Translations under genes and position numbers: made by a program
Shown: positions 36,687 to 58,933 of the stretch, in pieces
Position numbering within the stretch: position 1 is the stretch's first letter
Layout: each line of letters opens with the position of its first letter
Notes under the pieces: model-generated
Seen by the model: the letters and a program-made list of their open reading frames with translations, nothing else
Told to the model about the DNA's origin: nothing
The model's database searches: none
NCBI GenBank assembly: GCA_963764625.1
Contig: CAVXTH010000005.1
Span: 1-64,000 of the forward strand
Length of the DNA: 64,000 nucleotides
Source of the DNA: Candidatus Krumholzibacteriota bacterium
GTDB taxonomy: Bacteria; Krumholzibacteriota; Krumholzibacteriia; JAJRXK01
Direction of reading: 5' to 3'

Positions 36687-37052
36687 CTTCCTCCAAGCTC
36701 GGGCCGAAGCGAGCGGCCCATGGGGTTTCTGGGTTCGGGGAGAGCAAGGGGGAGGCCCGAGCCGGGGAAACCTGTTAACTAGATACGAATAAATTAGTTA
36801 GACGACCAGGCTCTGCTCCTATCTCGGGGCAAAAGCGTACGCAGAGGTACACCGTGGCGCTAGCCGTACACTGGAAGGAGTTGAGGGCGCCGTGCCCGCC
36901 CCCAGAGCGGGCGGGCTCTGCATCCGCACCAGCTTGACCCCCCCAGGGGTGCGCTGTCATTATGGAAGGCAAAGCTAGGCTCCCCCTTCCGGGCAGTCTC
37001 TCTGGGCATGAGGAGTTTCATGGGGTATTGAGAACGGACCTGATCTGACATC

Positions 37053-39080
37053 ATGTTGCACGCATCCTCTCCGCGCGGGCGATGCCTCTTCGCCGTCGCG
37101 CTCACTTTGCTTTGTCTTCTCTCGCTGGCTTCCTCCGCGTTCGGGGTGGAGTTTGTGGTGCCGGCAGGCGTGCACGGCGAGCTTCCGGCCCAGTTCCTCG
37201 CAAAGAGCACCATGACCGGCACGGGCAAGATTGCCACCGTCAACCAGACCCACTACGACGTTCTGCACTACGATCTCACTCTCGATCCCTCCTTCGACGA
37301 TCAGACGATCCAGGGCACGGTGCGCATCGACCTCGTGAGCCTGCTCGACGGGCTCACCGATCTCGAGTTCGACCTCTTTCAGAATCTCCAGGGAACCGGC
37401 GCCCATGACGATCAGGGGAATCCGCTGAGCTTCACCCACGAGAACGACTTGCTGACCGTGCAGCTCGCGGACCCGTTGTTCGCCGGTGACAGCCTGAGCG
37501 TCACCATCGACTACGAAGGTTCGCCCCAGCCGGTAGGATTTCTGGGAATGCAGTTTCTCCAGCACGATGGCACCCCGATCCTGGCCACCCTCAGCGAGCC
37601 CTATTACTCGCGTTCGTGGTGGCCCTGCAAGGATCTCCCCGACGACAAGTCGACGGTCACTCTCACCCTACGCGCGCCGCCCGGCTACTACTGCGCGGGC
37701 AACGGCGTGCTGACCTCCCAGGAAGTGCTTCCCAGCGGAGCAGGTACACTCTTCACCTGGGAGGAGGACTACCCCATCAGCTCGTACAACGTATCGGTCG
37801 CCGTGACCAACTACGTGGGGTGGACCGAGAACTGGACGAGCCCGAGCGGCACTCCGATGGTCCTGGAGTACAGGGTGTTTCCCGAGGACCTCAACAAGGC
37901 CCTCGTCGATTTCGCGTCCACACGGGAAATGCTCGACCTCTATTCAACGCTCTTCGGCGAGTATCCGTTCGTCAACGACAAGTACGGAATGGCGGAGTTC
38001 ATTTTCGACGGCGCCATGGAACATCAGACCATGACGAGCTACGGACAATCGCTCATCACCGGCGACAACTTCTACGAGACCCTCGTGGGTCACGAGATGG
38101 CGCACCAGTGGTTCGGCAACCTGGTCACGGTCAAGGATTGGAACGAAGTATGGCTCCACGAGGGCTTCGCCACCTACGCGGAGGCGCTCTGGGTCGAACA
38201 CAAGAGCGGGTTCGAGGCGTACCACCACTTCATGCTGTCGCATTCCGCCTATCAGATCGGCTTCTACGGTCCAGTGAGTCCGCCCATTCCCCTGTTCGGC
38301 GGAACCGTCTACCAGAAAGGCGCCTGGATTCTGCACATGTTACGCCACATGATCGGGGACAACGATTTCTTCCAGGTGCTCAAGACCTACTCGGCCTCGC
38401 CCAACTTACGTTACGGCGCGGCGAGGATCTCCGACTTCATTTCGATCGCGGAATCGGTGAGCGGCACCGAATTGTCCTGGTTCTTCGACGAGTGGCTCTA
38501 TCGCATCGGTCGTCCGGAATACCGGATGTCGTGGAGAAGCGAGAACCTGGGTGAGAACTACCGGGTGGTGGTTACGATCGAGCAGATGCAGAGCGGAGAT
38601 ACCTACCGCATGCCACTGGACTTCGTGGTGGACACCGCGGCGGGGAGTCAGACTTTCGTGGTGTGGAACGACGGAGCGTACCAGGTGGCCTCGTTCATCG
38701 TTCCGACGCAACCCACCGATGTCCGCCTCGATCCCGACGACTGGGTTCTGCGCTGGAACCAGAATCCCAATATTCCCACCTCGGTGCCACAGCTCACGGC
38801 GAGTCGGCTCGCGCTTCTCCCCAACGTTCCAAATCCCTTCAATCCCTCGACGCGCTTGCGGTTCACCCTTCCCGGGGAAGTTCCGGTCCAGTTGCGCATC
38901 GTCGACATGCGAGGCCGCACCGTCCGGCGTTTCCAAACCGATTCGATGGGGGCGGGACAGCACGAACTGATTTGGAGCGGGCGCGACGACAGTGGTCAAC
39001 CGGTGGCGTCGGGCGTGTATACCGTGGTGTTGCAGGAAGCGGACCAGACCGCGGCGCAGAGAATCACTCTGGTCAAGTAG
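37053..39080 (+). CDS. Secreted M1 aminopeptidase with C-terminal FlgD-Ig-like domain
   Basis: GAMEH, HEMAHQWFG...WLHEGFATY, YQKGAWILHML; PNPFNPST...WSGRDDSGQPVASGVY. Confidence 0.93.
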   Translation: MLHASSPRGRCLFAVALTLLCLLSLASSAFGVEFVVPAGVHGELPAQFLAKSTMTGTGKIATVNQTHYDVLHYDLTLDPSFDDQTIQGTVRIDLVSLLDGLTDLEFDLFQNLQGTGAHDDQGNPLSFTHENDLLTVQLADPLFAGDSLSVTIDYEGSPQPVGFLGMQFLQHDGTPILATLSEPYYSRSWWPCKDLPDDKSTVTLTLRAPPGYYCAGNGVLTSQEVLPSGAGTLFTWEEDYPISSYNVSVAVTNYVGWTENWTSPSGTPMVLEYRVFPEDLNKALVDFASTREMLDLYSTLFGEYPFVNDKYGMAEFIFDGAMEHQTMTSYGQSLITGDNFYETLVGHEMAHQWFGNLVTVKDWNEVWLHEGFATYAEALWVEHKSGFEAYHHFMLSHSAYQIGFYGPVSPPIPLFGGTVYQKGAWILHMLRHMIGDNDFFQVLKTYSASPNLRYGAARISDFISIAESVSGTELSWFFDEWLYRIGRPEYRMSWRSENLGENYRVVVTIEQMQSGDTYRMPLDFVVDTAAGSQTFVVWNDGAYQVASFIVPTQPTDVRLDPDDWVLRWNQNPNIPTSVPQLTASRLALLPNVPNPFNPSTRLRFTLPGEVPVQLRIVDMRGRTVRRFQTDSMGAGQHELIWSGRDDSGQPVASGVYTVVLQEADQTAAQRITLVK

Positions 39081-39082
39081 CG

Positions 39083-39111
39083 TCTCCACCCCGTACGAAT
39101 CGGGGAGGGGA
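39083..39111. terminator. GC-rich hairpin between the convergent peptidase gene and the large ncRNA
   Basis: TCTCCACCCCG-TACGAAT-CGGGGAGGGGA; no clear U tract. Confidence 0.45.
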
Positions 39112-39131
39112 GCAGGCCGGCCAACTGTGCC

Positions 39132-39841
39132 GAGTTCATGCCCCAGTGGACTCGACCAATGACCTGACTGGGGGGTGTCGGCTGAATCACTCAAGGTGTC
39201 CGTCGAACGAGGGCCCCCGCCGTCTGGCGCTCACAGGGGATCGACCCTGAAGCCTGTCCGTGCACGTCAGCCGGTCCTGCTTCCAACCCAACCGAACCGC
39301 GCGGATGAGGGGAAGGGAACTCAGGAGGCAAACGGTCCCTGAGAGGGTTTCCCCTCCCGTCCACCTCCCAGTACCCCGCCTGAACCCTTGTTTGAAAGAC
39401 GCCAGAGGCCGGAACACAGACGCGACATCAACGAGAACCGGCGCCGGGAGCACAGTCAACCAAATGCCCAGGCATTCACCCGCTGAAGAGCCGCGCGACG
39501 GGAAGTGGACTGCCTCACAACTGGCAGGCACTTCGGCCCGCTCTTCAGTCTTCACGAGTCTCTTGGGAAATTCCGGGCCTAGGGCGAGACGCAAGGCACC
39601 TGGCTGAACCGAGCAATCTCGCGACATCGCGCCTCTTGAAACTTCCAGTCCCCACTGGGACTAGACCCGCTTCGATAGACTTGGACGTCGCCGGTGACTC
39701 GGGTGAGGAATGCTCCAGTTCCGTAAGGAAGTGCGGCGAGGGTGCAAACTCGGGGTCTGGAGTCCCCTAGTCTCCGTGGAGGTAATGGTCCGTAGACGAG
39801 CCACTGGATAGACAAACAAGTCTACTTCGCCATGAACTCCT
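39132..39841 (-). ncRNA. Candidate large (~710 nt) structured non-coding RNA, class not recognised
   Basis: Own promoter; 5'/3' closing helices (39831-39839 with 39132-39140; 39797-39807 with 39143-39154); many nested helices whose G-U pairs only work on the minus strand; no credible ORF. Confidence 0.75.
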
Positions 39842-39847
39842 GTCGAA

Positions 39848-39876
39848 AAGTTACGGAAGCCATTCGGGGACGTCAA
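39848..39876 (-). promoter_or_regulatory. Sigma70 promoter of the large ncRNA
   Basis: TTGACG(39876-39871)-17 nt-TAACTT(39853-39848); predicted +1 near 39841, 2 nt before the closing helix. Confidence 0.7.
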
Positions 39877-39885
39877 CCCCCCCAC

Positions 39886-40740
39886 TCAACTCTGGCCGAG
39901 ATGGGTGGTAAACCACTCGGAACTCAAAGCCAGCGCGCGGTCCAGGGCGTCGGTCGTGCCCGCGAAGGGGTGAATCGCGTTCCAGGTGTGTCCGGTGCCC
40001 GGGATCATCTCCAGGTGGCAGCCGTCCGCCTCGCCGCGCCCCGCGCGGAGCGTCTGGGCATTCTGGGGATCGACCGCCAGATCATTCTCCGCCTGCAGAA
40101 TGAGGTGGGCCGCCTTCATTTCCTTGACCCCAGCGGTGAGGTCATAGCGCCGCGCGTTCTCGCGCGCATCTTCCACCAGAGTGAACCCCACCGCCATGCG
40201 CTGCTTCGTACGAGAATTCAGGAACTCCAGCTTGCCTTCCTCTTCCCAGTCGCGGAGCTGACGCTCGGTGTAGTGCAAGGCCTGGGAAATTCCGTTCCAG
40301 GTGACGAGAGCGGCGATCGCCGGATCCTCCCTCGCGACGACGATGGCGCTCAGGGCTCCCCGGCTGTGCGCGAGGAGACCGACACCAAGCCTACGGGTTT
40401 CTTCGGGAAGAGGAGACTCTCTTCGCAACCAGCTGAGGACATGCTCGAGATCCTCGATCTCCCGGGCATAGGTGTTGCGCTCGAAAAGATCCAGCCGATC
40501 GAACTCGCCGGGCCTCTCTCCGACTCCATTCAACGAGAAATCGAAGCAGACCGTGACGAATCCTCTGGTGGCCAAGGTGCGCCCGAGGTAGGGGAAGAAC
40601 CCCCAGTTCTTGAAACCCTTGAAGCCGTGCACGATTACGACCAGACCGAGGGCTTGCTCCTCGGCCGGCCGGCGGAGATCCAGGCGCAAGGGAAGTCCGT
40701 CCCTGCACTGAAGTTGGTGCTGGCTCTCTCTCAGGTTCAT
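39886..40740 (-). CDS. Alpha/beta hydrolase (start uncertain, 40740-40800)
   Basis: IVHGFKGFKNWGFFP, AHSRG nucleophile elbow, DLAV, TGHTW. Confidence 0.88.
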   Translation of the reverse strand: MNLRESQHQLQCRDGLPLRLDLRRPAEEQALGLVVIVHGFKGFKNWGFFPYLGRTLATRGFVTVCFDFSLNGVGERPGEFDRLDLFERNTYAREIEDLEHVLSWLRRESPLPEETRRLGVGLLAHSRGALSAIVVAREDPAIAALVTWNGISQALHYTERQLRDWEEEGKLEFLNSRTKQRMAVGFTLVEDARENARRYDLTAGVKEMKAAHLILQAENDLAVDPQNAQTLRAGRGEADGCHLEMIPGTGHTWNAIHPFAGTTDALDRALALSSEWFTTHLGQS

Positions 40741-40798
40741 CCCTACCATCCCCTTCGCCGATTTTCTTGAGCTTTCATCTCGTTCGGAAAGTGGTCGC

Positions 40799-41479
40799 AT
40801 GCGCGCGAATTCGCCAATCGAGGCGGCGGTTTTCGACCTGGACGGAACCCTGGTGGATTCGCGTCAGGCCATCGTCCATGCGGTCGCCGAAGGCGTTCGC
40901 CGCGTCTTTGAGAATCACGCGATCGACGATCACGCGCCCGACGAAACCGCGATCATGGATGCCATGGGCCTTCCCCCGGTGGAATACTACCGCAGAATCC
41001 TTCCTTCGCACCTGGCCCATCTGGCCGGCGAGGTCAAGGAGAGCGCCACCGCCGCCGAAATCGAAGTTCTGGCGCGGGGCGAGGGGAAGCTGTACCCGAA
41101 AGTACGCGAGACCCTGCAACAGCTGCGCGCGCGGGGCGTTCGCCTCGCGATCGTGAGCAACGCGCAGGAGCCGTATTTCCGCGCGTGTATACGCTACTTG
41201 AAGCTCTCGGATCTGGTGGAACACACCGAGTGTCACGAGGAACTTCCCGTGGGTGTCGGCGAAGGCAAGCCCGTGCTCTTGCGGCGGGCCCTCACAGAAT
41301 TGGGCGTGGAGGCGGCGCGCAGTGTGATGGTCGGAGACCGCAGGGAAGACATCGCCGCGGGCCAAGAACTGGGGTGCGCGACCGTCGGTTTGAGCTATGG
41401 CTTCGCGGGAGAGGGGGAACTCGAGGACGCCGATCAGGTGTACGCCGAATTCGAGCGCCTCCTGGAACTGGCGCGCTGA
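40799..41479 (+). CDS. HAD-superfamily phosphatase
   Basis: FDLDGTLVDS, IVSN, GKP, MVGDRREDI. Confidence 0.92.
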   Translation: MRANSPIEAAVFDLDGTLVDSRQAIVHAVAEGVRRVFENHAIDDHAPDETAIMDAMGLPPVEYYRRILPSHLAHLAGEVKESATAAEIEVLARGEGKLYPKVRETLQQLRARGVRLAIVSNAQEPYFRACIRYLKLSDLVEHTECHEELPVGVGEGKPVLLRRALTELGVEAARSVMVGDRREDIAAGQELGCATVGLSYGFAGEGELEDADQVYAEFERLLELAR

Positions 41480-41567
41480 TTCCGCCTCGCCACAAGCGCA
41501 CGCCGAGTACCCTTCCGACACAAGCCCACCCCCCACTGCGCCTTTTGGAGAATGGCGCCGAGGTCCC

Positions 41568-42783
41568 TCAGGCCACTCCCAGCTGCGCCCGCAGCGTCTG
41601 CAGTCCTTGGGCCGCGTCTCCCTCGAAACTACCCTGCGCTCGCTGCGCCTGACCACCGCCCTTGCCTCCCAGGGGCTTCAGAGGCGCGGCTCAGAATCTG
41701 TCCGCAGTGCAGAGACTCCAGCCCGACTCCACGCGAGAGGATCACCCGCGAGCGCTCGCCCTGCGGCGCCACTAAGAGTATGAGCAGATCGTTTTCCTCC
41801 CGCAGGGCGTTCGCAACTTCCGTCGCAGCGCCGGCAAGGGAGGGCGGAAGCACCCGGGCCAGCACCCGCGCGGAAACTCCCTCCAGCACGCAGTCCTGCG
41901 CTTCTGTGAGCCAGCGCTGGGCGCTCATCGCCGCCAGCTGGGCAGCCAGTTCCGCCGTTTGCTTGGCGTTGGTCTTGAGATCCTCGCGCTGGCGTTCGAC
42001 CAACGCTTCCAACTCCGCGTCACCGGTGGTGAGAAGGCGCCCCAGGCGGCCCACGAGACGGTCGCGTGAACGCCGGTAGTGAAGAGCGCGACGGCCGCAG
42101 AGAAAGTGCAGCCGGATTCCCCCACGCACTTTCTCGCGCCGCTGGATTGCAATGAGACCAATCTCCGCCGTGTTCGCGCAGTGGGTTCCCCCGCAGGCGT
42201 TGCGATCGAAGCCATCGATCTCGATGACGCGAAGCTCGGTTTGCCCCGGCGGGATCTTGCCGCGATCGACACTGTCCACGTCTTTCGGATCACGGAACCG
42301 CACCTGCACCGGCCGGGCCTCTTGGATCACCTGGTTCGCCGCGTCCTCGACGCGGTCGAGGGTCGCGTAGTCGAGGTCCTCCACTTCCAAGTCCAGCGTG
42401 TTCCCCGATTCCCCCAGACGCGAGCTGGTGGTGGAAAGACCCAGTTCGTCTTCGAAAATGCGTGAGAGAACGTGCTGGCCGGTGTGCTGCTGCCGGTGAT
42501 CCGCCCGGCGGAGTTCGTCCACCACACCCTCGACCTGGGCGCCCACCGCGAGCTCCGATTCTCCGGTGACGAAGTGGATGATCTCTCCCTTTTCTTCGTG
42601 CACATCCACCACTTGGTCTCCGTTCAGGGTTCCGCGATCGGCCATCTGTCCCCCGCTCTCCGGGTAGAAACAGCTGACGTCGAGACGCACGCGGCGCGGC
42701 CCTTCGCCCTCGGACTCGACGGCGGTGATCCGGGCCTGAAACCGGCATCGGTAGGCGTCGCGGTAGTAGAGGCGTTCGGTCAC
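41568..42783 (-). CDS. AlaX-type alanyl-tRNA editing protein with DHHA1 domain, apparent frameshift near 41682
   Basis: TERLYYRDAY, FYPESGGQ, QQHTGQHVLS, CGGTH; shifted frame gives LGGKGGG...AQG, stop at 41568-41570. Confidence 0.88.
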
Positions 42784-43017
42784 GGCAGAAGCTCCCTCCT
42801 GGAAAATGCCCGCCCGCCGGAACACGGGTGGGTTCTCTTCCGCCTCTCATCATACGCCAGGCGCCCCGGCTCTCAAATACCCCTGGATCCCCCGGGGGAA
42901 AGGTCCTGGGTTGGGGGCCGCAAACGCGGCCCAGCGCGCTTTCCGGCTTGATTTGGGTGCAGCTCTTGCATAGACTGAAGGCAAGCGTGGAGAAAGAGGT
43001 CTTGGGCTCGCTTTTTA

Positions 43018-43047
43018 TTGATATTGATTTGCAATTTCAATTAAAAT
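43018..43047 (+). promoter_or_regulatory. feoAB promoter overlapped by a Fur-box-like site
   Basis: TGATATT-G-ATTTGCA (43019-43033) matches 11/14 of TGATAAT-N-ATTATCA; TTGATA-18 nt-TAAAAT. Confidence 0.7.
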
Positions 43048-43123
43048 GAGCTAGCTTGGGATTCACTGGGGAAGTCGTTGGGGGGACTCGCTCCCCTGTC
43101 GCACGCTGGAGGAAACGCTCACG

Positions 43124-43345
43124 ATGACTCTCGATCAGCTCAAACCAGGTGAACGCGGTGTAATCACCGGCTGGACCGAGCAGGAGCCCCCGAGCCGTCT
43201 GCTCGAAATGGGTCTTCTGCAGGGCACGCTGCTGGAGATCATTCGCCTGGCCCCCTTGGGCGACCCCATCGACATTCGGATTCGCGGCTATCACCTCTCT
43301 CTGCGCAAGCACGAGGCTGGACTCGTCGAAGTTCAGCCCCTCTGA
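43124..43345 (+). CDS. feoA: Ferrous iron transport protein A
   Basis: RLLEMGLLQG, APLGDPI, LSLRKHEA. Confidence 0.95.
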   Translation: MTLDQLKPGERGVITGWTEQEPPSRLLEMGLLQGTLLEIIRLAPLGDPIDIRIRGYHLSLRKHEAGLVEVQPL

Positions 43346-43352
43346 GATCTCC

Positions 43353-45506
43353 ATGCGCTGGACCACCGGCGGAAGTTCCGCCCCCACCCTTTCCGAGCAT
43401 GCGAAGGCTGTCCGACTCGTTGCGCTGGCCGGAAACCCCAACGTGGGAAAGACCACCGTCTTCAATCAGCTCACGGGTTTACGTCAGAAAGTCGGCAACT
43501 ACCCCGGCGTCACAGTGGAGCGCAAGATCGGCCAGGTCACCACCGAGGGTGAGCTCGCGGTACAGCTCGTCGACGTTCCCGGGACCTACAGTTTGAATCC
43601 GCGCTCGATGGACGAGGAGATCGCCTACCGGGTGTTGGTGGGCGAAATGCAGGGACAGGAACGCCCCGATCTCATCGTCTGCGTGGTCGATGCGGGAAAT
43701 CTCGAGCGGAACCTCTATTTGACGAGCCAGGTCCTCGATCTGGGAATTCCCACCATCATCGCCCTCAACATGACCGACTCCTCGGAGCGCGAAGGCGTTT
43801 TCGTGGACGCTTCGGCTCTGTCCCGCGAGCTCGGGGTCCCGGTTTTTCCCCTGGCCGCGAGCAGCGGCAGGGGAATCGACACGCTGCGGCGCAGCCTCGC
43901 GGGGGAATTACCTCAAGTTCCACCCCGGCGCTGGAAGGCGCCGCCGGCCCTGCAGAAAGAGGTCGACCATCTGGCCGATTGTCTGGCCGAGGACCTGCCC
44001 AGTCTCTCTCCTTCGGTACGCTTCGCCGACGCCCTGCGAGCCCTGGCGAACACGACGGCTCCCCGCTTCGAAAGCCATCATTCCGAGCGCTTCTGGAACG
44101 AGGTCGAAGCCTCACGCCAGAGCTTGCGCGCGCAGGGGACGCTGTACGAACAAGAGGAGATCATCGCGCGCTACCAGTGGATCACTCCTTTGGCCGCGCG
44201 GGTCATCCAACTCAGACAAGAGGAAAATTACCGCAGCGTCAGCGAGAGAATCGACTCCATCCTGACCCATCGCTTCCTCGGTCCGGCCTTTTTCTTGGCC
44301 GTCCTGCTGGTGGTGTTTCAAGCGGTGTTCAGCTGGGCCGCGCCCTTCATGAATTGGATCCAAGACGGAATGGGCTGGCTGTCGACTGTGGCCAGTGCCC
44401 ATTTGCCGGCCGGTCTCTTACGCGGTTTGATCGTCGACGGAGTGCTCTCGGGAGTGGGCGGTGTGCTCGTCTTCCTTCCACAGATCCTCCTCCTCTTCTT
44501 CTTCCTGGGGCTTCTGGAAGACACCGGATACATGGCCCGCGTCGCATTCATCATGGACCGTCCCATGCGCAAGGTGGGCCTCAGCGGTCGCTCGGTCGTT
44601 CCGCTGATTTCCTCCTACGCCTGTGCGATCCCGGGGATCATGGCCACCCGCACCATGGACAGCCAGCGCGACCGTCTGGTCACCATGATGGTCGCTCCGT
44701 TCATGACCTGTTCGGCGCGGCTGCCGGTCTACGCCCTGGTCATTTCCGCCTTCGTCCCCGCGGCCGGCCACTTCGGATTCATCAGCTACCAGGCCCTTGC
44801 CCTCATGAGCTTGTACTTGATGGGTACGGGAATGGCCGTGCTCGCCGCCGCGTTTCTGCGCCATCGGATCATCAAGGGCAACGCCTCCACCTTCGTGATG
44901 GAGCTTCCCCCCTACCATAGGCCCCGACTGCGCGACGTGGCCTGGCGCATGTCCGAACGGGCCAAGATCTTTCTCACCCGCGCGGGAACGATCATTCTGG
45001 CCATGAGCATCGTACTCTGGTTCCTGGCCGCTTTCCCGCAGGCCCCCACCGACCCGGCGGGGGGTCAGATCGATTCGGGCACCCAGCTCGCCAACTCCTA
45101 CATGGGCCGAGCCGGACATCTCTGGGAGCCCATGCTGAAACCGCTCGGCTTTGACTGGAAGATCGGGGTGGCGCTACTCTCGTCCTTCGCGGCCCGGGAG
45201 GTCGTGGTCAGCGCGCTCGGCACCATCTACAGCGTGGGCGATACTTCAGGCGACGTCTCCACTCTGGAAAAGCGTCTGGTGAACGACACCTATCCCGATG
45301 GGACGCGCGTGTGGTCGCCGCTGGTCGCGGCGAGCCTGCTCATGTTCTTCGTACTCGCCTGCCAGTGCATGTCGACCCTCGCGGTGGTGAAACGGGAGAC
45401 GAATTCCTGGCGATGGCCGCTCTTCATGTGGACCTACATGTTCGCCCTAGCCTGGATCGCGTCCTTCACGGTCTACCAGGGTGGCCTTCTCTTGGGATGG
45501 GGGTGA
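43353..45506 (+). CDS. feoB: Ferrous iron transport protein B
   Basis: GNPNVGKT, NYPGVTVE, DVPGTY, NMTD, PFMTCSARLPVY, FAAREVVVS. Confidence 0.97.
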   Translation: MRWTTGGSSAPTLSEHAKAVRLVALAGNPNVGKTTVFNQLTGLRQKVGNYPGVTVERKIGQVTTEGELAVQLVDVPGTYSLNPRSMDEEIAYRVLVGEMQGQERPDLIVCVVDAGNLERNLYLTSQVLDLGIPTIIALNMTDSSEREGVFVDASALSRELGVPVFPLAASSGRGIDTLRRSLAGELPQVPPRRWKAPPALQKEVDHLADCLAEDLPSLSPSVRFADALRALANTTAPRFESHHSERFWNEVEASRQSLRAQGTLYEQEEIIARYQWITPLAARVIQLRQEENYRSVSERIDSILTHRFLGPAFFLAVLLVVFQAVFSWAAPFMNWIQDGMGWLSTVASAHLPAGLLRGLIVDGVLSGVGGVLVFLPQILLLFFFLGLLEDTGYMARVAFIMDRPMRKVGLSGRSVVPLISSYACAIPGIMATRTMDSQRDRLVTMMVAPFMTCSARLPVYALVISAFVPAAGHFGFISYQALALMSLYLMGTGMAVLAAAFLRHRIIKGNASTFVMELPPYHRPRLRDVAWRMSERAKIFLTRAGTIILAMSIVLWFLAAFPQAPTDPAGGQIDSGTQLANSYMGRAGHLWEPMLKPLGFDWKIGVALLSSFAAREVVVSALGTIYSVGDTSGDVSTLEKRLVNDTYPDGTRVWSPLVAASLLMFFVLACQCMSTLAVVKRETNSWRWPLFMWTYMFALAWIASFTVYQGGLLLGWG

Positions 45507-45511
45507 GCTCG

Positions 45512-45709
45512 GTGAACATCCTGCAATTCGTGGTCGTGATCGGGCTCGTGATTCTCGCCGCGGTCTATGCCGCGCGCCATGTCTTGCGCCAGTTCAATAC
45601 GGCCGATCAGGACTTCAGTGAGAGTGGAGGCGCGTGTTCGAACTGTAGTGCGAACGCGCTCGCGCGGAAGGCCAAGCGGATCGAGCCCTCACACCGCAAT
45701 TCGAGGTAG
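45512..45709 (+). CDS. FeoB-associated small Cys-containing membrane protein
   Basis: GTG 5 nt after feoB; one TM helix then GGACSNC. Confidence 0.7.
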   Translation: MNILQFVVVIGLVILAAVYAARHVLRQFNTADQDFSESGGACSNCSANALARKAKRIEPSHRNSR

Positions 45710-46840
45710 GGCTGGCGAGATTCGCGCCAGCACTTCGTAGTGGATCGTCCCTGCCCATTCCGCGAGCGTCTCCGCCGTGAGCTTCTCGCCCTCTTGCGTT
45801 CCCAGAAGGACTGCCTCGTCCCCGAGTTCCACTTGGGAAAGATGGGTAACGTCCACCATCATCAAGTTCATGCAGATGCGACCGCGCACCGCGCACCGCT
45901 TTCCGTGCAACAGCACGTGGGCGCGACCGGACATGCTTCGCGAATAGCCATCCGCGTATCCCACCGGGAGAAGCGCCAGGCGAGTGTCGACCTCCGCCTT
46001 GTCGGTGCATCCGTAGCCGATGTACGAACCGGCCGGAACCGTTTTGAGTTGAGCGACCCGCACTTTCCAGCTGAGAGCGGGCCCGATGCTAAGCTCCTCG
46101 TCCGAACCCCCTTTTCGGGCCGAAACCAGAGTCGCCGAGCTCGGCCAGTAGCCGTAGGCCGAAATGCCGATGCGTGCGAGATCCATGTAGCGCGAGGGGA
46201 AGAGGATCGCGGCCGCGCTGCAACTCATGTGAATGGCCTGAGGACGCAGGCCCGACCGCGAGATTTGTTCCAACACCTCGTCGAAGACCCGAGATTGCTC
46301 TTCCGCATAGCTGTGATCGGTCGTGTCCTCGATGTTGGCGTAATGGCTGTGCACGCCGACCAACTCGAGTGCGGGTTCGCTCTTGATCGCCGCGAGACAG
46401 CTCGCCAGCTCCTCGCCGGTCACTCCCTGTCGCCAGGTTCCCGTCTCCACCTTGAGGTGGATCTTGGCCGGATAGCCGCTCTTCAAGGCGACCTGGGCCA
46501 GATCGCGCAAGCGCGGCGCATCGTACACCGTCAGGTCGAAGCCCGCCTCGATCGCCGCCTGCATTTCATCATCACCTAGAGGCCCCAGGATCAGGATACG
46601 CCGGCCGAGCGCCAACTCGGCCACGAGTTTGGCCTCGGTGAACGAATGGACGCAGAACCAGGAGGCCCCCCCCGCGGCAAACGCCCGCGCCGCGAGCTGA
46701 AGACCGTGGCCGTACGCATTGCTCTTCACCACCGGGGCGAGCGCCGTGTTCTGGGGCAGGTGTTTCGCGAAGGCCCGGAGATTTTGCGTCAAGACCTCGG
46801 TCTCGACTTCAACCCATTGCAAAGCCGCGATCGCGGACAT
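45689..46840 (-). CDS. alr: Alanine racemase
   Basis: VVKSNAYGHG, HLKVETG, IGYG, PVGYADG, GRICMN, GTIHYE. Confidence 0.96.
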   Translation of the reverse strand: MSAIAALQWVEVETEVLTQNLRAFAKHLPQNTALAPVVKSNAYGHGLQLAARAFAAGGASWFCVHSFTEAKLVAELALGRRILILGPLGDDEMQAAIEAGFDLTVYDAPRLRDLAQVALKSGYPAKIHLKVETGTWRQGVTGEELASCLAAIKSEPALELVGVHSHYANIEDTTDHSYAEEQSRVFDEVLEQISRSGLRPQAIHMSCSAAAILFPSRYMDLARIGISAYGYWPSSATLVSARKGGSDEELSIGPALSWKVRVAQLKTVPAGSYIGYGCTDKAEVDTRLALLPVGYADGYSRSMSGRAHVLLHGKRCAVRGRICMNLMMVDVTHLSQVELGDEAVLLGTQEGEKLTAETLAEWAGTIHYEVLARISPALPRIAV

Positions 46841-46866
46841 TCTCGTCTCCTCGCCGCCGAGCCGGC

Positions 46867-47859
46867 TCAGTTTTCCGGGGGTGCCACACCTTCGAGATGA
46901 CCGTAGAGCTCGTGCCGGTGCCGCAGGAGTTTGAATCCCAATTCCCTGGCCAGCTTCTCCTGAAGCTCCTCGATCTTGTCGTTGCGGAACTCGATGATCC
47001 TCCCGCTCCTCTGACAGATCATGTGGTCGTGGTGCTCCAGCCCGCGGGTCTCGTAGCGGGTGCGACCGCCCTCGAAACTCCGGCTGGCGGCAAGACCCGA
47101 ATCGACCAGCAGTTTCAGGGTGCGGTACACGGTGGCGTATCCGATCTGCGGATCGCTCCGCTTCACTTCCGCGAGCAACTCGTCGACGCTGACGTGGCCC
47201 TCGAGCTTCGCGAAGATCTCCACGATAAGATCGCGTTGTCGGGTCGATTTCAAATGTTCCTGGGACAGGTACTTGCGGAAGGCGGTGGGAAGATTCTCGG
47301 CGGACCGGCGCTCGTGGGAAGCGGGCTGGGAGGTCTTGGAGCTGAAGGGTCGTCCAGCGAGTTTGTCCTGGCCGTCTTTGGAATTGAAGCGGCAGGGACG
47401 GCCGGCGAAGAAATCCTCACAGACTCCGTAGAGTTCGTGGCAGTGATTCTCGATGTGAAACCCGGCCGTCTTCGCCACCTCTTCCTGTAGCGCTTCCACT
47501 TCTGGCAGCTTGAACTCGATGACGAGTCCGCATTCCGCACAGATGAGATGGTCGTGATGTTCCTGGCCGCGAACCTCGTAGCGGCTCTCTCCGTCTCCGA
47601 AATGCCGCACGCTGGCCAGGCCCGAATCGACCAAGAGCTTCAGGGTGCGGTAGACCGTGGCGTAGCCGATGCCCTTTTCCTTGCGGGTAACCTCGCGCAG
47701 CAAGTCCTCGACACTCGCGTGCCCCTCCATGCGCGCGAACACGCCCACGATGGCCTCGCGCTGGCGCGTGCACTTCAGGTTTTCCCTCAGGAGATAGGCG
47801 CGGAACTCGTCGACCAGATCGGAAGAACCCCGCGCGTCAGGAGACTTTGTCTCTACCAT
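46867..47859 (-). CDS. fur: Fur-family regulator with two complete Fur domains in tandem
   Basis: TRQR, IGYATVYRTLKLLVDSGLA, HHDH(L/M)IC and HELYG each occur twice in one open frame; start set at ATG 47859. Confidence 0.9.
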   Translation of the reverse strand: MVETKSPDARGSSDLVDEFRAYLLRENLKCTRQREAIVGVFARMEGHASVEDLLREVTRKEKGIGYATVYRTLKLLVDSGLASVRHFGDGESRYEVRGQEHHDHLICAECGLVIEFKLPEVEALQEEVAKTAGFHIENHCHELYGVCEDFFAGRPCRFNSKDGQDKLAGRPFSSKTSQPASHERRSAENLPTAFRKYLSQEHLKSTRQRDLIVEIFAKLEGHVSVDELLAEVKRSDPQIGYATVYRTLKLLVDSGLAASRSFEGGRTRYETRGLEHHDHMICQRSGRIIEFRNDKIEELQEKLARELGFKLLRHRHELYGHLEGVAPPEN

Positions 47860-47906
47860 GGTCAAGCCTCCCCAACCGGGGAAATTCGAGGGCGCCAGCT
47901 CGATCT

Positions 47907-47956
47907 TGAAAATGACTATCAATGCCGAAACTAGGCGAGCCCCCGGGGGCTGTCAA
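47907..47956 (-). promoter_or_regulatory. Promoter of tandem fur with a Fur box at the start site
   Basis: TTGACA(47956-47951)-17 nt-TAGTTT(47933-47928); TGATAGT-C-ATTTTCA (47921-47907) matches 12/14 of the 7-1-7 consensus. Confidence 0.75.
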
Positions 47957-49464
47957 GCAGTCGCGGAGCTGGGCGCGTCCAGGGAGGTGATCAGCGCTTC
48001 CTGTCCGTCGTACTGGATCAGGATCGGCTTTTCCTGGTAAACGCTCTCGATGCAGACCGGCTTTCCCCACAGGGCGAAGAGGTTCGCCAGGGTGGCTTTG
48101 GCGTATTCGATGTCCAGCGGAATTCCCTCGTAGGTGTGCTTGAGAAAGAGGATCCCGTGCCCCTTGTGATCGGCGTCGACAACGGTGATCAGGGGGTGAC
48201 CCCCGTTAGTGAGTTGGGCCAGTAGCTGCTTCTTGATCTTGGCGAACTCCCGGCTCGCGATGACGTACTGATCCTTTTCCAGATCATACCGATAGATGAA
48301 CATGCGGTGTTCCTGGGCGAACTCCTCGGTGAGGAAGGTGTCGATGAAAGTGACGTCGTTGTGCACCGTACGCACTTCGAAGATCTTCTCGCGTCCCTTC
48401 CCGATTCCGGTATCCCAGTTCATGCGTTCCTTGTAGTTCTCGCAGTCCTCGTACGCGTTCCCGAAGCGGCCCTTGTTCCACCTCTCCTCGATGTCGCGGT
48501 AGAGATAGAGGCCCAGCTTGTAGGGATTGACCGAGTCGTTTCCTCCCATGGTGCCGCTGTGATGGTCGGCGAAATCCACGATCTCCGAGTCGTTGAGGAC
48601 TTTCTCCGTCATGAGTTTGGAGTGCCAATAGCTGGCCCAGCCCTCGTTCATGATCTTGGTCTGCCACTGTGGGGCGAAGTAGTAGGATTCGTCGCGGATC
48701 ATACCCAGGATATCCCGTTGCCAACGGGTCAACGGCGCGTGCTGCATGAGGAAGAGCAGAACATCGCGCTCCGGGCTTTCGGGAAACTTCTTGGGTTGCC
48801 GCTGCTTTTCTTCGCGCTTGCGTCTTTCCCTTTCTTCCTGCACCGCCGCGGTCGCGTTGATGAAGCTCTCCATGTACGACTTGGCTTCGAAACGCACGCG
48901 AGGCGCCGGCTCCGGTTCAACCGGAGCGGTCTCGTCCACCGACGTCCGTTTCTTGCTTCGAAACACGGAGTGAACGTCGATCAGACGCTCGAGGGATACA
49001 CACCGGTCGAGAAACTGCTCGACCTCGTCGAGTCCGAAGCGTGCGATGTAACGACGGATGCGCGAGGCGTGATTCGCCATGGTGTCGATCATTTGACGAT
49101 CGGTCTGTGAAAACCATACATTGTTCTTGAAGAAATCGCAGTGACCGTACACGTGACACATTACGAGTTTCTGGTCGACGAGATGGTTCTCCTTCATCAG
49201 GTAGGCGTAGCAGGGGTCGTTGTTGATGACCATTTCGTAGATCTTCGAGAGTCCGTACGCGTAGCCTTTGCTGAGCTGGTCGAAACTCATGCCATGCGAC
49301 CAATGGGGATAGCGGACGGGGAAACCGCCGTAGCTGGCCACTTCGTTCAGTTGGCGATAGTCGATGACTTCGAAGTTTAGCTCGAAGAAATCCAGGCCGT
49401 ACTCGCGCGCGTACGTCTCGATCTTCACCTTCCAGCCCCTCAGATCCTCGCTCAACTCCGACAT
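47953..49464 (-). CDS. spoVR: SpoVR/YcgB family protein
   Basis: RYPHWSHG, KIYEMVINNDPCYAYL, HVYGHCDFFKNN, TKIMNEGWASYWH, NPYKLG. Confidence 0.95.
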   Translation of the reverse strand: MSELSEDLRGWKVKIETYAREYGLDFFELNFEVIDYRQLNEVASYGGFPVRYPHWSHGMSFDQLSKGYAYGLSKIYEMVINNDPCYAYLMKENHLVDQKLVMCHVYGHCDFFKNNVWFSQTDRQMIDTMANHASRIRRYIARFGLDEVEQFLDRCVSLERLIDVHSVFRSKKRTSVDETAPVEPEPAPRVRFEAKSYMESFINATAAVQEERERRKREEKQRQPKKFPESPERDVLLFLMQHAPLTRWQRDILGMIRDESYYFAPQWQTKIMNEGWASYWHSKLMTEKVLNDSEIVDFADHHSGTMGGNDSVNPYKLGLYLYRDIEERWNKGRFGNAYEDCENYKERMNWDTGIGKGREKIFEVRTVHNDVTFIDTFLTEEFAQEHRMFIYRYDLEKDQYVIASREFAKIKKQLLAQLTNGGHPLITVVDADHKGHGILFLKHTYEGIPLDIEYAKATLANLFALWGKPVCIESVYQEKPILIQYDGQEALITSLDAPSSATA

Positions 49465-49467
49465 GCC

Positions 49468-50574
49468 CTACCTACCCTTCCCGAGGAAGTCTTTGATGCT
49501 GTCTGGAATGTCGTCCTTGGTGTCGATCTGACTGGTGACCAGGTTCTCCGCGCCCTCGAGCTGCTTGTCCAATTCGCGTTTGAACTGGCCCGAACCGTAG
49601 GTGGATGTCACCTGGCCATAGGAGAATTGATTGACGGCCGGCAAGAGGGTCTCTTTCAAGAGTGCCAGACAACGTTCGGTATCGCCTCCGCCCCAGTTGT
49701 CCCCGTCGGAAAAATGGAAAGGATAGATATTCCATTCGTGCGGCGGATAATTTTCGTCGATGATTTCCGCGCACAAATTGTAAGCGCTGCTGATCTTGGT
49801 GCCACCGCTCTCGCGGGTGTGGAAGAAGGTGTGGCGATCGACTTCGTGGGCCACCGCGTCATGGATCACAAAGCGCGTCTGCAGGTTGGCGTATTGGCTC
49901 TTGAGCCAGGTGTCGATCCAGAAGGCCTCGATCCGCACCGTCTCCTTTTGCTCGTCCCCCATCGACCCCGAGACGTCCATCATGTAGATGATGACGGCGT
50001 TGGAGGCCGGCTGCTGCACCTTCACCGGAGCCCGGTAGCGCATGTCGCGACGAATGGGAATGACCATCGGGTCGAGCGGGTCGTAGGCTCCGGTCTGGAG
50101 CTGGCGCTTGAGCGCCTCCCGATAGCTGCGCTTGAAGTGGCGTAAGCCCTGGGGCCCCACCAACTGGATGCTGCTGTAGCGAGAGCGGGCCGAGCTGATC
50201 TGTTGCTTGCCCCTGGGCTCGATGCGGGGGAGCTCGAGTTCCTCTCCCATGAGCTTCGCCAACTCGTCGATGGAGAGCTCGACCTCCAGGACGTGTTCTC
50301 CCGGGGCGTCGCCGGCGGGACCGGCAGCGTCCCCTTCCTGGCCGGGGGCGGGCTGGCCTTCAGCGCCTTCGCCGAAGCCGATTCCCCCCTGCTCCTTGGC
50401 TCCAAAACGAAAGCGGGGAATTTCGATGGTGGGCACGGGGATGGACACGAGGTCCTTCCCCTTGCGTCCGATCATCTCGCCGTGCGAGATGTAGCGGCGC
50501 AGGTTCTCCTTGATCCGGCCACGGACGATATCCTGGAAACGGTGGAGATCACGATCGATGCGGCTGATCTGCAT
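49468..50574 (-). CDS. yeaH: YeaH/YhbH (DUF444) vWA-like protein
   Basis: [33 protein letters not shown]; lies between prkA and spoVR. Confidence 0.93.
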
Positions 50575-50588
50575 CTCGGCCGCCTTCG

Positions 50589-52652
<2,064 letters not shown>

Positions 52653-52706
52653 CGTCTTCTCCCGCAATTGGGGCCTCAAACTTGGGGGATCGTCCTACAT
52701 GCAGGC

Positions 52707-52722
52707 TGCAATCTCCATACCA
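52707..52722 (-). promoter_or_regulatory. Sigma54 (-24/-12) promoter of prkA-yeaH-spoVR
   Basis: TGGTATG-GAGA-TTGCA fits TGGYAYR-N4-TTGCW, 55 nt upstream of ATG 52652. Confidence 0.75.
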
Positions 52723-52884
52723 AGCTCGAATCTGATGTCAACTGGTGTGATGACAAGCCGTTGCGCTCGCAGGGGTGCAAGGTCATGGAGTGGAACTCGC
52801 CGCTGACATCCTCAACTTAGCCATGGTGGGCGGGGGCCGTCAAGCAAACCGAAGCACGCTGTGCGCGGCCGAAACGGCCCGAGC

Positions 52885-53661
52885 TCAGGGAAGAATCTCC
52901 AGGCGCACCGCTTCGGAGTCACTGGCCGCCACGGTCCACAGGCCCTTCCCATCCCAGCTGAGACTCACGAATTCTCCCGGCCGGAAGAACGCGTCCCGGG
53001 CGATCACCGCGTCTCTACGGCCAGTGGTTCCAGTGAGCCGGTAGAGCCGGCCGGTGCTGGCGTCGGCCGACCAGAAGTGGTAGCCGTCGTAGGCCAGGCC
53101 GGTGGGATAAAACGCGGGTGCGGCGACTTTCTTCGACACTCGCCCTTCCTCGGTGTCCACCCGCAAGATATTGCGCGCATCACAGTCGACCACCCAGAGG
53201 TAGAGGCCGTCGTAGGCCATCCCGCCCGGATGATGACCGGGTGAAGGAAGGGTTAAGAGAACCGAGCCATCCGCGGGCGAAATCTGGTAGATCCCGCTGC
53301 TAGCTCCGAGAAGACTGCCGCTGCTCCACCAGTTCTCGCCGTCAGAGGCCAGGCCGGTTTCGAATTCGTTGGATTGCGCGGCCAGCACGGAGAGTTCCCG
53401 TGAGGAAGCGCGCCATCGCATGAGCCTGACCTGAAAACTGGAATCCGGCGCGGAGAGACCGGTGTTGCCCGTGGCCAGGAGCACGACCGCGTCCTTCTGG
53501 ACCAGGAACCCCCGCACCCCATCGGTCGGCAGCGGCATCCGCGCGTCCACCACGGCGCCGATCTCCGGTAGGGATTGGAGATCCACCGCATGGGCCGAAG
53601 AGGGCAGGCCACTCAGGAGCAGGAATACAGCGGCAAGAACGCGCGGACAGCTGGATTTCAC
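52885..53661 (-). CDS. Secreted beta-propeller protein (glutaminyl-cyclotransferase/NHL-like repeats)
   Basis: Signal peptide ...SSAHA; repeats GLASDGENWW, GMAYDGLYLW, GLAYDGYHFW, SLSWDGKGLW; GTG 53661 chosen as start. Confidence 0.75.
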   Translation of the reverse strand: MKSSCPRVLAAVFLLLSGLPSSAHAVDLQSLPEIGAVVDARMPLPTDGVRGFLVQKDAVVLLATGNTGLSAPDSSFQVRLMRWRASSRELSVLAAQSNEFETGLASDGENWWSSGSLLGASSGIYQISPADGSVLLTLPSPGHHPGGMAYDGLYLWVVDCDARNILRVDTEEGRVSKKVAAPAFYPTGLAYDGYHFWSADASTGRLYRLTGTTGRRDAVIARDAFFRPGEFVSLSWDGKGLWTVAASDSEAVRLEILP

Positions 53662-53775
53662 GATGGACTTCGACCTCTGGCTCTCCGGTTGCACCCAGGA
53701 TTGGACTTCGCCGCGGATGGCTAACACGCTAGCGAAGAAGCGCGAGAGTGTCGACGCGATTCTCCCACCGAAAGG

Positions 53776-53810
53776 CAAACGAACGCCGGGTCCCTGAAAG
53801 GGACCCGGCG
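53776..53810 (-). terminator. Intrinsic terminator
   Basis: Perfect 12-bp stem CGCCGGGTCCCT/AGGGACCCGGCG (53784-53810) followed by UUCGUUU on the minus strand. Confidence 0.85.
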
Positions 53811-53949
53811 CACGGTAGCACAACGATTATCGCGATCCAACGGATGGCAGCGTTTCGTCCCTTACTGGCGTAGCGCTGAAAGCCCCTCGTATTCCTGACA
53901 CACCTCCAGCCGCCTCCGCCAGTAAGTAGACTTGTTTGCCTATCCGAAA
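53776..53949 (-). ncRNA. Candidate ~170-nt sigma54-dependent small RNA
   Basis: Bounded by a -24/-12 motif and an intrinsic terminator; 10-bp stem 53917-53926/53861-53870 and 8-bp G-U-containing stem 53903-53910/53875-53882; 5' 22 nt complementary to the large ncRNA. Confidence 0.7.
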
Positions 53950-53958
53950 ACATTCTAA

Positions 53959-53975
53959 TGGCATATTGCGTGCCA
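53959..53975 (-). promoter_or_regulatory. Sigma54 (-24/-12) promoter of the small RNA
   Basis: TGGCACG-CAAT-ATGC with GG-N10-GC spacing; AT-rich ~150 bp upstream (53976-54130) could hold activator/IHF sites. Confidence 0.65.
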
Positions 53976-54132
53976 GCAATTCGAGCGGATTCCGGAGAAA
54001 ACACTCGGAGCTAATCTATTGTCATGAAACTAGTTAGAACCACAGCCGGGGAGAGGGTCCCGCCCTACAAAAAACTAAACCATCAAGCAATTTAATGTTC
54101 CAGAAAATAATTTTACTTTTTGGGGAAAACTC

Positions 54133-54495
54133 TCAGAGCTCGGAGTGCCCTGTCTCGTCGGAGCTGGTCGCGGATTCGAACTCGACGGTGTCGGCGACTT
54201 CACCGTCATAGAGCAAAGTGTCAGGATCGCCCTTGAGAACGATACGCACCCGCGTGGACTGGTTCTTCTCCAGAGCAGCGATGACGCCCTTGATGAGATC
54301 GGTGCCCGACTGGACCGTGAGATCGATCGGCTCGCTGGTGTCGACGACCAGGACCTGAGTCGCCGAGGGCAGCTCGTGGGTTCCGGCCTCGAGGGTGGTC
54401 TTGATGGCCCATTTCGCCTCAGCCGGCCGCAAAGTCAGGGACGTGAAGAGTGCGACGAAGAGGAGAAGAACGGCAAGAATGCTGGCGCGGAACAT
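54133..54495 (-). CDS. Small secreted hypothetical protein
   Basis: Signal peptide MFRASILAVLLLFVAL...AEA; GGGAGG SD. Confidence 0.75.
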   Translation of the reverse strand: MFRASILAVLLLFVALFTSLTLRPAEAKWAIKTTLEAGTHELPSATQVLVVDTSEPIDLTVQSGTDLIKGVIAALEKNQSTRVRIVLKGDPDTLLYDGEVADTVEFESATSSDETGHSEL

Positions 54496-54610
54496 GAAAA
54501 TCCCTCCCCCGTAGGGTCCTCAGCAGCGTGGCCCCTAGTGTTCATCTACTATACGGCTTGTGGGCCGCCGAGCGAAACCCTTTTCTGGCTCGTTTTCGGC
54601 CAATGCACCC

Positions 54611-58933
<4,323 letters not shown>

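Follow-up and report, generated by a model that had tools for sequence, protein, structure and literature searches.

What relates two segments of 22 nucleotides (nt) that lie ~14 kilobases (kb) apart in the genome of a Candidatus Krumholzibacteriota bacterium and read as reverse complements of each other at all but one position? This question is addressed here for a window of 64,000 nt (positions 1 to 64,000 of contig CAVXTH010000005.1, assembly GCA_963764625.1). Based on a comparison of 10 genomes, the two segments probably belong to two dedicated noncoding RNAs (ncRNAs) of one Krumholzibacteriia family that bind each other by base pairing. One is a small RNA with a sigma-54 promoter, and its 5' end is antisense to the 5' part of the other, a separate large RNA. 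An earlier sequence-only reading of the window had proposed this core arrangement, and conserved promoters, covariation and compensatory changes now give it good comparative support. The genome of the window is denoted G000 (3,566,213 bases, 96% complete). G000-G009 are the 10 genomes of the family (GTDB family f1, four genera g1-g4), with G002 and G003 as the two closest relatives of G000. The two segments are as follows.

53924-53945, plus-strand letters: site A, AAGTAGACTTGTTTGCCTATCC
39806-39827, plus-strand letters: site A', GGATAGACAAACAAGTCTACTT

By direct reading, 39806-39827 is identical to the reverse complement of 53924-53945 at 21 of 22 positions, which agrees with the match claimed earlier. 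The lone mismatch is C versus T, which for two minus-strand RNAs would amount to a G-U pair. When up to 3 mismatches are allowed, the 22-mer has exactly 2 matches in the window, and at least 2 matches arose in 0 of 100 dinucleotide shuffles. The scan for further copies that had been suggested returned only the same 2 places in the whole assembly, so that the pair is unique in the 3.57-megabase genome; the reversed-pattern control gave 0. The palindromic pattern TAGAC-N6-GTCTA (up to 1 mismatch) also occurs only at the two sites within the window, which is weak evidence when taken alone (at least 2 in 5 of 100 shuffles). Many copies keeping only this pattern, which the sequence-only reading had named as a sign against itself, were not seen. 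Additionally, minus-strand promoter-like elements lie immediately 5' of both sites, and the match extends into neither flank.

The small RNA and the large RNA

The small RNA is a predicted transcript of the minus strand, with the following features.

53961-53975, minus strand: sigma-54 promoter of the small RNA, TGGCAC-N5-ATGC (GG at -24, GC at -12), read directly and conserved
53776-53949, minus strand: small RNA of ~170 nt, predicted start ~53949 (covariance-model match 53776-53945)
53924-53945, minus strand: site A, the small-RNA 5' terminus GGAUAGGCAAACAAGUCUACUU, with GGAU(A/C)GGCA kept in 10/10 genomes
53878-53906, minus strand: apical part of stem-loop 2, invariant GUGUGUCAGGAAUACGAGGGG (site B), from the invariant columns of alignment A1
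53784-53810, minus strand: terminator hairpin of the small RNA, then UUCGUUUG (helix 4 of A1, with 15 pairs, 9 of them changed on both sides)

The GG-N10-GC element and its gap of 14-16 nt to GGAU are kept in all 10 family genomes. The promoter is likewise kept in all 16 further contigs retrieved with the small-RNA core pattern (26/26 in all); 6 of these additional loci came from the genome collection and 10 from metagenomes. The -24 GG and -12 GC at 10-nt spacing, the rpoN gene carried by the host genome and an adjoining activator gene together agree with sigma-54 dependence.

The layout of the small RNA comprises a hairpin of 3 base pairs (bp) at the 5' end, a long second hairpin, a linker with invariant CGAUCGCGA, and a 15-bp terminator hairpin with a U-rich tail. 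At the 5' hairpin, only the 3-bp GGC/GCC stem is conserved, and the apical 21 nt of the second hairpin are nearly invariant. The consensus has 43 pairs, 16 of which are changed on both sides, a figure matched by 0 of 500 shuffles. In this consensus, 96.7% of the cells are paired, and sliding the register lowers the fraction to 38-52%. Several invariant U-G pairs are compatible with the minus strand only. Similarly, the single-sequence fold is stable, with a z-score of -6.5 and 0 of 200 shuffles equally stable. Covariance model R1 for the small RNA scores 163.6 bits at 53776-53945 and finds exactly one copy in each family genome (10/10), and it finds none in 141 genomes from eight other families of the class. 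At E-values up to 10, the small-RNA locus matches no Rfam family beyond chance level. A simple terminator scan did not flag the terminator. Collectively, the conserved promoter of its own and the covarying terminator helix suggest that the small RNA forms an independent unit.

The large RNA fills an 800-nt gap, flanked by the gene of an alpha/beta hydrolase and, in convergent orientation, by that of an M1 peptidase. Its features are listed below.

39848-39876, minus strand: promoter of the large RNA (TTGACG, 17 nt, TAACTT), read directly and conserved in 10/10 genomes
39111-39841, minus strand: large ncRNA, ~730 nt here and 440-930 nt in relatives, predicted start ~39841 (from conservation and RNA contigs)
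39806-39827, minus strand: site A', AAGUAGACUUGUUUGUCUAUCC, ~15-35 nt into the large RNA
39304-39392, minus strand: central module, a long covarying helix around CAGGGA(C/G)C (alignment A3, model R3)
39100-39292, minus strand: 3' domain of ~190 nt, closed by GCAGGACCGGC...GCCGGCCUGC (alignment A2, model R2)
39192-39219, minus strand: site B', CGGGGGCCCUCGUUCGACGGACACCUUG, homologue of the segment that pairs with the small-RNA loop in relatives (complementarity scan)

A promoter of the form TTGAC(G/T/C)-N17/18-TAnn(T/G)T lies 39-43 nt upstream of the end of the site-A' motif (...G(C/U)C(U/G)AUCC) in all 10 genomes, and a -10 element of this TAnnTT form is reminiscent of FCB-group promoters. A consensus promoter scan missed TTGACG-17-TAACTT and flagged TCGACA-16-TAGACT (39846-39819) instead. 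The latter was rejected as the main promoter of the large RNA, as it is not conserved beyond G000, G002 and G003.

Across the full length of the gap, G002 and G003 show 79% identity to G000, and in G001 and G004 only the last ~180 nt are alignable. More distant homologues were found in G005 (E 2e-5) and G006 (E 8e-5) via full-length matches of the 3'-domain model, in G007 through the site motif, and in G008 and G009 through similarity to G007. The two RNA genes therewith co-occur strictly, in 10/10 family genomes. In 8 of the 9 relatives, the large-RNA gene lies on the same contig and strand, 7-22 kb downstream of the small RNA, as it does in G000 at ~14 kb; the small RNA of G009 is on a separate 3.8-kb contig.

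The central module, aligned from 8 genomes, contains 20 pairs, of which 13 are changed on both sides (reached by 0 of 500 shuffles). Its helix is present in these 8 of the 10 genomes and was not found in G001 and G004, which have the short form of ~440 nt. The 3' domain is present in G000-G006. It was not found by model R2 in G007 and G008, G007-G009 are without a homologous site B, and none of 35 genomes outside the family has the domain. Outside the family, the central-helix model R3 gave a single match among 141 genomes (G116:C23:12083-12171 in G116, 35 bits). This match is a plain GC-rich hairpin between convergent open reading frames (ORFs), without CAGGGA, promoter or site A, and was rejected as a false positive; it shows that R3 is able to catch plain terminator-like hairpins.

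A protein-coding role of the large RNA was rejected, as no reading frame is conserved. All 16 stop-to-stop frames of G000 (at least 30 amino acids, aa) match G002 and G003 in every frame, at 39-95% identity and often frame-changed, and none has a convincing match beyond the genus. In Rfam, the window gave 0 matches at the gathering score. None of the 4227 models of Rfam 15 matched the large-RNA locus at E-values up to 10 beyond chance level (E 0.09-6.8 across both loci, e.g., the terminator part of sbcD at E 0.09), and six homologous large-RNA loci gave no match at E-values up to 1. Judged by these comparisons, the large RNA is a modular, partly structured ncRNA with covarying helices.

Three side observations concern the large RNA. 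First, the self-complementary hexamer UCGCGA occurs in both RNAs, within the small-RNA linker CGAUCGCGA (53830-53840, minus strand) and in the large RNA within GUCGCGAGAU (~39619-39630, minus strand), a context also present in G005 and G006. The hexamer may serve as a third contact or for dimerization. Second, a central hairpin of genus g4 (G007-G009; L038, L069, L068), GGGUGUGUGAGG, is similar, not complementary, to the invariant small-RNA loop GGUGUGUCAGG. Third, the convergent gene (37053-39080, plus strand) encodes an M1-family aminopeptidase with a C-terminal FlgD_ig domain. Between its stop codon and the apparent 3' end of the large RNA are ~30 nt, which include a shared hairpin CCCCG...CGGGG.

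Four metatranscriptomes from salt marsh and sediment (runs X1, X2, X3 and X5), chosen because they hold the stretch of the window, were compared with positions 37000-56000; their contigs inform on the presence and rough extent of an RNA, not on its strand or ends. Six contigs fall on the large RNA: 39111-39802, 39024-39330, 39368-39817, 39124-39274, 39426-39595 and 39565-39791. The first of these is 719 nt long, with a word depth of 36.3 and 17 differences (contigs on neighboring genes, 0-3). The 5' ends of the contigs at 39791, 39802 and 39817 compare with a predicted start at ~39841, and no processing site was read from them because the ends vary between runs. One contig ends in adapter at 39111, the foot of the closing helix of the 3' domain, which is a weak hint that the large RNA has its 3' end there. 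Among the contigs listed for the four runs, 53776-53949 is uncovered, which proves nothing about the small RNA. RNAs as short as this one are often lost from such libraries. The sequence-only reading had assigned both RNAs to the minus strand. This assignment stands for the promoters, which are conserved on that strand; for the RNAs themselves, it is one that we infer.

Predicted base pairing at sites A and B

To compare site A with site A' across the family, an ungapped register was used in which the first base of the small RNA is anchored to the last base of the large-RNA motif. Site A pairs with the large RNA of its own genome in 10/10 genomes, over ~16-22 paired positions and with a perfect 8-bp seed throughout. 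Positions 1-8 are paired in every genome; at position 7, six genomes have G-U and four have G-C. Of the cells at positions 1-17, 90.8% are paired (9 distinct genomes), and sliding the register by 1-3 reduces this fraction to 29-42%. The conserved seed of a trans-encoded base-pairing small RNA, paired in all 10 genomes and co-varying, is therefore present. The compensatory changes that had been proposed as a check were found in the relatives, with complementarity kept; both partners have changed at five positions.

Position 5: A-U to C-G in G004
Position 11: A-U to G-C in G007, with A-C as an intermediate in G006
Position 13: A-U to G-C in G002, with G-U as an intermediate in G003
Position 14: A-U to G-C in G001, G008 and G009
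Position 16: U-A in G000 versus C-G in G001 and G004-G009, with C-A in G002 and G003

Compensatory double changes at 5 positions were equalled by 8 of 2000 column shuffles, the paired fraction over positions 1-17 was reached by 2 of 2000, and cognate against swapped partners over 40,320 reassignments (8 small RNAs x 8 targets) gave p 0.0027 for paired positions and p 0.0012 for duplex energy; because the genomes are related, these figures overstate significance and are not to be read as probabilities. The register of G008 and G009 is shifted by a bulge of one base, and their duplex has 8 + 3 + 6 bp at -32 kcal/mol. Among 568 seed-compatible sites of the G000 genome, site A' is the best non-self partner, at -36.8 kcal/mol compared with -27.5 for the next. 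Moreover, the change in the otherwise invariant seed of G004 is matched in its large RNA, which suggests that the large RNA is the main partner of the seed. The 16 further small-RNA loci contributed nothing to the covariation test because they hold no new seed variant and no second site within their DNA.

The two segments had also been read as kissing hairpins of the CopA/CopT type. A conserved loop-loop kiss is unsupported because the UAGAC/GUCUA hairpin of the target occurs only in G000, G002 and G003 and is absent in G001 and G004-G009. In those other genomes, unrelated small 5' hairpins precede site A'. The observations fit better with a duplex that begins at the small RNA's free 5' end.

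A second complementary region, site B, emerged from a search for ungapped runs of complementarity; in it, CCCUCGU...CUGACAC of the large-RNA 3' domain is matched by the invariant small-RNA loop. The best duplex of the loop lies at the homologous place in all 7 genomes that have the domain. The energy of the best duplex, and the number of 30 shuffles of the large RNA that were as good, are given for each genome.

G001: -40.7 kcal/mol, 0/30
G004: -43.6 kcal/mol, 0/30
G006: -39.4 kcal/mol, 0/30
G005: -31.1 kcal/mol, 1/30
G000: -28.1 kcal/mol, 11/30
G002: -30.8 kcal/mol, 6/30
G003: -30.8 kcal/mol, 7/30

As far as these duplexes tell, site B is present in three genera of four (g1-g3) and degenerate in the window genome; in G000, G002 and G003, the duplex does not exceed its shuffles. 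The order of sites A and B is the reverse of what a simple antisense copy would give.

Possible consequences of pairing and alternative explanations

In the explanation that we favor, the two ncRNAs of this family bind each other by base pairing, and the process would run as follows. The sigma-54 promoter would fire the small RNA (~170 nt), presumably activated by the adjoining 1440-aa TPR enhancer-binding protein, and transcription would end at the intrinsic terminator. The large RNA would be constitutive, made from its own housekeeping-type promoter (TTGAC-N17-TAnnTT) and abundant in environmental RNA. The duplex would join the outermost 5' end of the small RNA (GGAUAGGCA...) to the site ~15-35 nt into the large RNA. 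The large RNA would thereby mask the two single-stranded regions through which the induced small RNA functions, which would impose a threshold on small-RNA action, and the duplex of ~16-22 paired positions would be a substrate for RNase III, which is present in the genome. The most likely consequence, in our view, would be mutual titration or co-degradation. A decoy role of the large RNA fits because this RNA evolves fast and is modular around a fixed anti-small-RNA site. Neither Hfq nor CsrA was found in the 96%-complete genome; the reading of the GGA-rich loop of the small RNA as a CsrA sponge was dropped because CsrA was not found.

Several points weigh against this explanation. Control in the reverse direction, with the large RNA switched by the small RNA, is almost as likely as titration or co-degradation. 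Besides the relatedness of the genomes that inflates the shuffle and permutation figures above, the independent compensatory events number ~five. The cells of positions 1-17 that are not Watson-Crick pairs comprise 11 G-U and 7 A-C, and hence show no clear bias toward the wobble that RNA tolerates. RNAcofold predictions for the small RNA and the 5'-most 128 nt of the large RNA include site A in the minimum-energy dimer in only 6/10 genomes. In genus g1, the 5' end of the small RNA is also able to pair with nt 97-106 of the same RNA. Site B of G000 is no better than 11 of its 30 shuffles, and G007-G009 keep the loop sequence of the small RNA but have no site-B homologue; because these three genomes keep the loop without the 3' domain, the loop must have another partner as well. 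The whole-molecule fold of the large RNA is weak, with a z-score of -1.86 (20 shuffles) compared with -0.55 for the other strand. Finally, we infer from the genomes the minus-strand origin of both RNAs, the driving of the promoter by the activator and the pairing in vivo. Furthermore, the covarying helices and the 3' domain suggest that the large RNA also has an activity of its own, and they keep both the reverse direction and a stable two-RNA complex under consideration.

The genes around the small RNA bear on the remaining alternatives. They are all encoded on the minus strand.

54611-58933, minus strand: sigma-54 activator of 1440 aa, with TPR repeats, an AAA+ sigma-54 interaction domain and a C-terminal HTH_8 (Pfam, NCBIfam)
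54133-54495, minus strand: 120-aa protein, N-terminus resembling a signal peptide, encoded between the activator and the small RNA (translation)
52885-53661, minus strand: secreted protein of 258 aa (translation)
50589-52679, minus strand: PrkA (Pfam)
49468-50574, minus strand: DUF444, YeaH-like (Pfam)
47953-49464, minus strand: SpoVR, YcgB (Pfam)
46867-47922, minus strand: tandem Fur of 351 aa with two Fur-family domains (two PF01475 stretches; NCBIfam Fur, PerR and Irr match both halves)

Of 12 loci tested, 11 have an activator homologue upstream of the small RNA, and the twelfth has no upstream flank. The giant sigma-54 activator noted earlier near the small RNA is thus found directly upstream in every locus with enough flank. 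Residues 1-620 of the activator have no sequence relative in the PDB, and Pfam and NCBIfam gave no receiver-domain match for the protein. The 120-aa protein matches no Pfam or NCBIfam family. It has a homologue in 5 of the 12 loci, and in three runs metatranscriptome contigs cover its ORF (54068-54526 and others). The stretch 54030-54130 is markedly AT-rich (AAAAAACTAAACC...AATTTTACTTTTTGG) within a GC-rich genome and lies 60-160 nt upstream of the sigma-54 promoter; it is a plausible place for activator sites or DNA bending.

Next after the tandem Fur, on the same strand, is a gene for alanine racemase (Alr). The secreted protein, the tandem Fur and Alr lie between the two RNA genes in 6/6 relatives checked. 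The PrkA-DUF444-SpoVR genes are in this interval in 3 of these 6 (G005, G006 and G008) and absent there in G001, G004 and G007, so that the small RNA is not strictly tied to prkA. In G003, as in G000, this stress operon also lies downstream of the small RNA. The tandem Fur (46867-47922), a covalently fused Fur 'dimer', is unusual.

The main rival explanation starts from this neighborhood. The small RNA would mainly be a cis-acting 5' leader or attenuator of the sigma-54 operon behind it (the 258-aa secreted protein, then PrkA-DUF444-SpoVR or the tandem Fur), and the large RNA, by pairing with the 5' end of this leader, would alter termination versus read-through in trans. In every locus inspected, the terminator is followed by a gene on the same strand (~115 nt downstream in the window), a homologue of the secreted protein is downstream in all 6 relatives checked, and a simple scan showed no separate promoter between the terminator and the next gene. 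Moreover, yeaG, the PrkA homologue of Escherichia coli, is reported to be activated by NtrC (10.1101/254623). However, the first gene varies by genus, with ~260-280 aa in g1 versus ~380-430 aa elsewhere in a noisy ORF list, and PrkA-DUF444-SpoVR is missing downstream in G001, G004 and G007. The consensus fold contains no conserved antiterminator pairing, and the 15-pair terminator helix covaries as a constitutive element. We regard the leader reading as unlikely.

A further alternative gives the reverse direction its fullest form. In such a two-RNA device, a signal sensed by the activator would induce the small RNA, which would clamp the 5' region and the 3' domain of the constitutive large RNA and thereby switch the putative activity of the latter. 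At present, we consider this quite unlikely as a whole.

A stable two-RNA complex, in which the small RNA staples the 5' region of the large RNA to its 3' domain and so switches or completes a putative structured RNA or ribonucleoprotein, seems more doubtful still. In genera g1-g3, one complementary region lies at either end of the large RNA. Where this RNA is shortest (G001 and G004, ~440 nt), it keeps exactly both regions together with the strongest site B. The large RNA also has covarying helices. However, G007-G009 keep the invariant loop without the 3' domain and site B, and site B is degenerate in the window genome. Additionally, modules are gained and lost between genera, unlike in a catalytic or scaffold core.

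The shared 22-mer might instead be a DNA operator of one protein, e.g., the tandem Fur or the activator, placed downstream of two promoters. In G000, the palindrome TAGAC-N6-GTCTA indeed lies just 3' of the promoter at both places, and the tandem Fur-family regulator is encoded between the sites. However, the genome holds two copies only, and in relatives the palindromic arms are not conserved, whereas the non-palindromic spacer and flank are. Five positions change together at both sites in different lineages, which a shared protein would not predict, and the element is the most conserved part of an RNA with covarying structure. An operator is therefore very improbable.

Least credible is that the complementarity is a functionless leftover of an old inverted duplication or of gene conversion: the copies are inverted on one replicon, 7-22 kb apart, but the match ends at the 22-mer, a segment shorter than is usual for homologous recombination, the order of sites A and B is that noted above, none of 8 relatives with both genes on one contig shows an inversion of the interval, and four genera retain the complementarity amid freely diverging flanks, which points to selection.

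Comparison with known systems

Pairing between the two ncRNAs, the explanation preferred here, resembles several known systems in part. RNAIII is a regulatory RNA of 514 nt. The statement of the sequence-only reading that no described system has this layout is too strong, as small RNAs whose partners are regulatory RNAs or RNA sponges have been reported, e.g., SprY-RNAIII (PMC8501977) and SroC-GcvB (PMC4474525). In Staphylococcus aureus, the small RNA SprY is reported to titrate RNAIII (PMC8501977). Similar to SprY and RNAIII, the small RNA described here pairs with a much larger regulatory RNA from another locus, and the control is RNA on RNA rather than of an mRNA. In contrast, the RNAs of this family are unrelated to SprY and RNAIII in sequence and structure, the partner has no coding part, and the small RNA would be sigma-54-dependent. 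Moreover, two complementary regions are found in most genera, and the case here is built on comparison alone.

SroC is reported to sponge GcvB (PMC4474525). Similar to this and other sponges, the large RNA carries a site complementary to the seed of a trans-encoded small RNA, mutual titration would result, and the site is conserved within a fast-evolving remainder. Known sponges are for the most part Hfq-dependent short pieces of mRNAs or tRNA spacers. In contrast, the partner here is a stand-alone RNA of 440-930 nt that has covarying helices and a conserved promoter of its own, and the search of the genome did not find Hfq.

CopA/CopT pairs are cis-encoded, fully complementary and plasmid-borne. 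The likeness to them is that, in G000, both segments are able to form 5-bp hairpins with complementary 6-nt loops. In contrast, the genes here lie 14 kb apart (7-22 kb in relatives) on the same strand, and only ~17-22 nt match.

Small RNAs with sigma-54 promoters beside the gene of their activator include Qrr with LuxO, and GlmY/GlmZ with GlrR. Similar to these, the small RNA has a -24/-12 promoter and an adjoining gene for an enhancer-binding protein, and GlmY/GlmZ is also a two-RNA circuit. GlmY is reported to be a protein decoy and not to pair with GlmZ (PMC4152352). Unlike Qrr and GlmY/GlmZ, the small RNA has no Rfam match, and its activator is a 1440-aa TPR protein without a receiver-domain match. 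At the two loci, no known Rfam family, including Qrr, GlmY/Z, 6S, tmRNA and RNase P, comes near the gathering threshold.

A full-text search for literature combining 'Krumholzibacteriota' and 'noncoding RNA' found no paper. Collectively, on present evidence, both RNAs are previously undescribed, and the pair is a variant of RNA-RNA regulation, not a wholly new principle. As far as the literature searched shows, this uncultured phylum has been without a described regulatory RNA. Rarely can an RNA-RNA interaction be argued purely from sequence, as for this pair by a unique site, fixed positions in the transcripts and compensatory changes in several lineages. The pair would also connect sigma-54 signaling and a stress-related neighborhood (PrkA-DUF444-SpoVR and the tandem Fur) to a large ncRNA.

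OLE, GOLLD, ROOL, HEARO and raiA are large structured bacterial ncRNAs that form Rfam families. Similar to them, the large RNA is stand-alone, several hundred nt long and equipped with covarying helices, and it comes from an environmental lineage. In contrast, it has no Rfam match, and its architecture is modular and variable between genera. To our knowledge, no trans-RNA partner has been described for these five classes. If the two-RNA device outlined above were true, it would be the first large bacterial ncRNA class with a cognate, co-evolving trans-RNA regulator, confined to one family. The function of large bacterial ncRNAs is a long-standing question, and a cognate small RNA provides a direct experimental handle on it, even without a cultured host.

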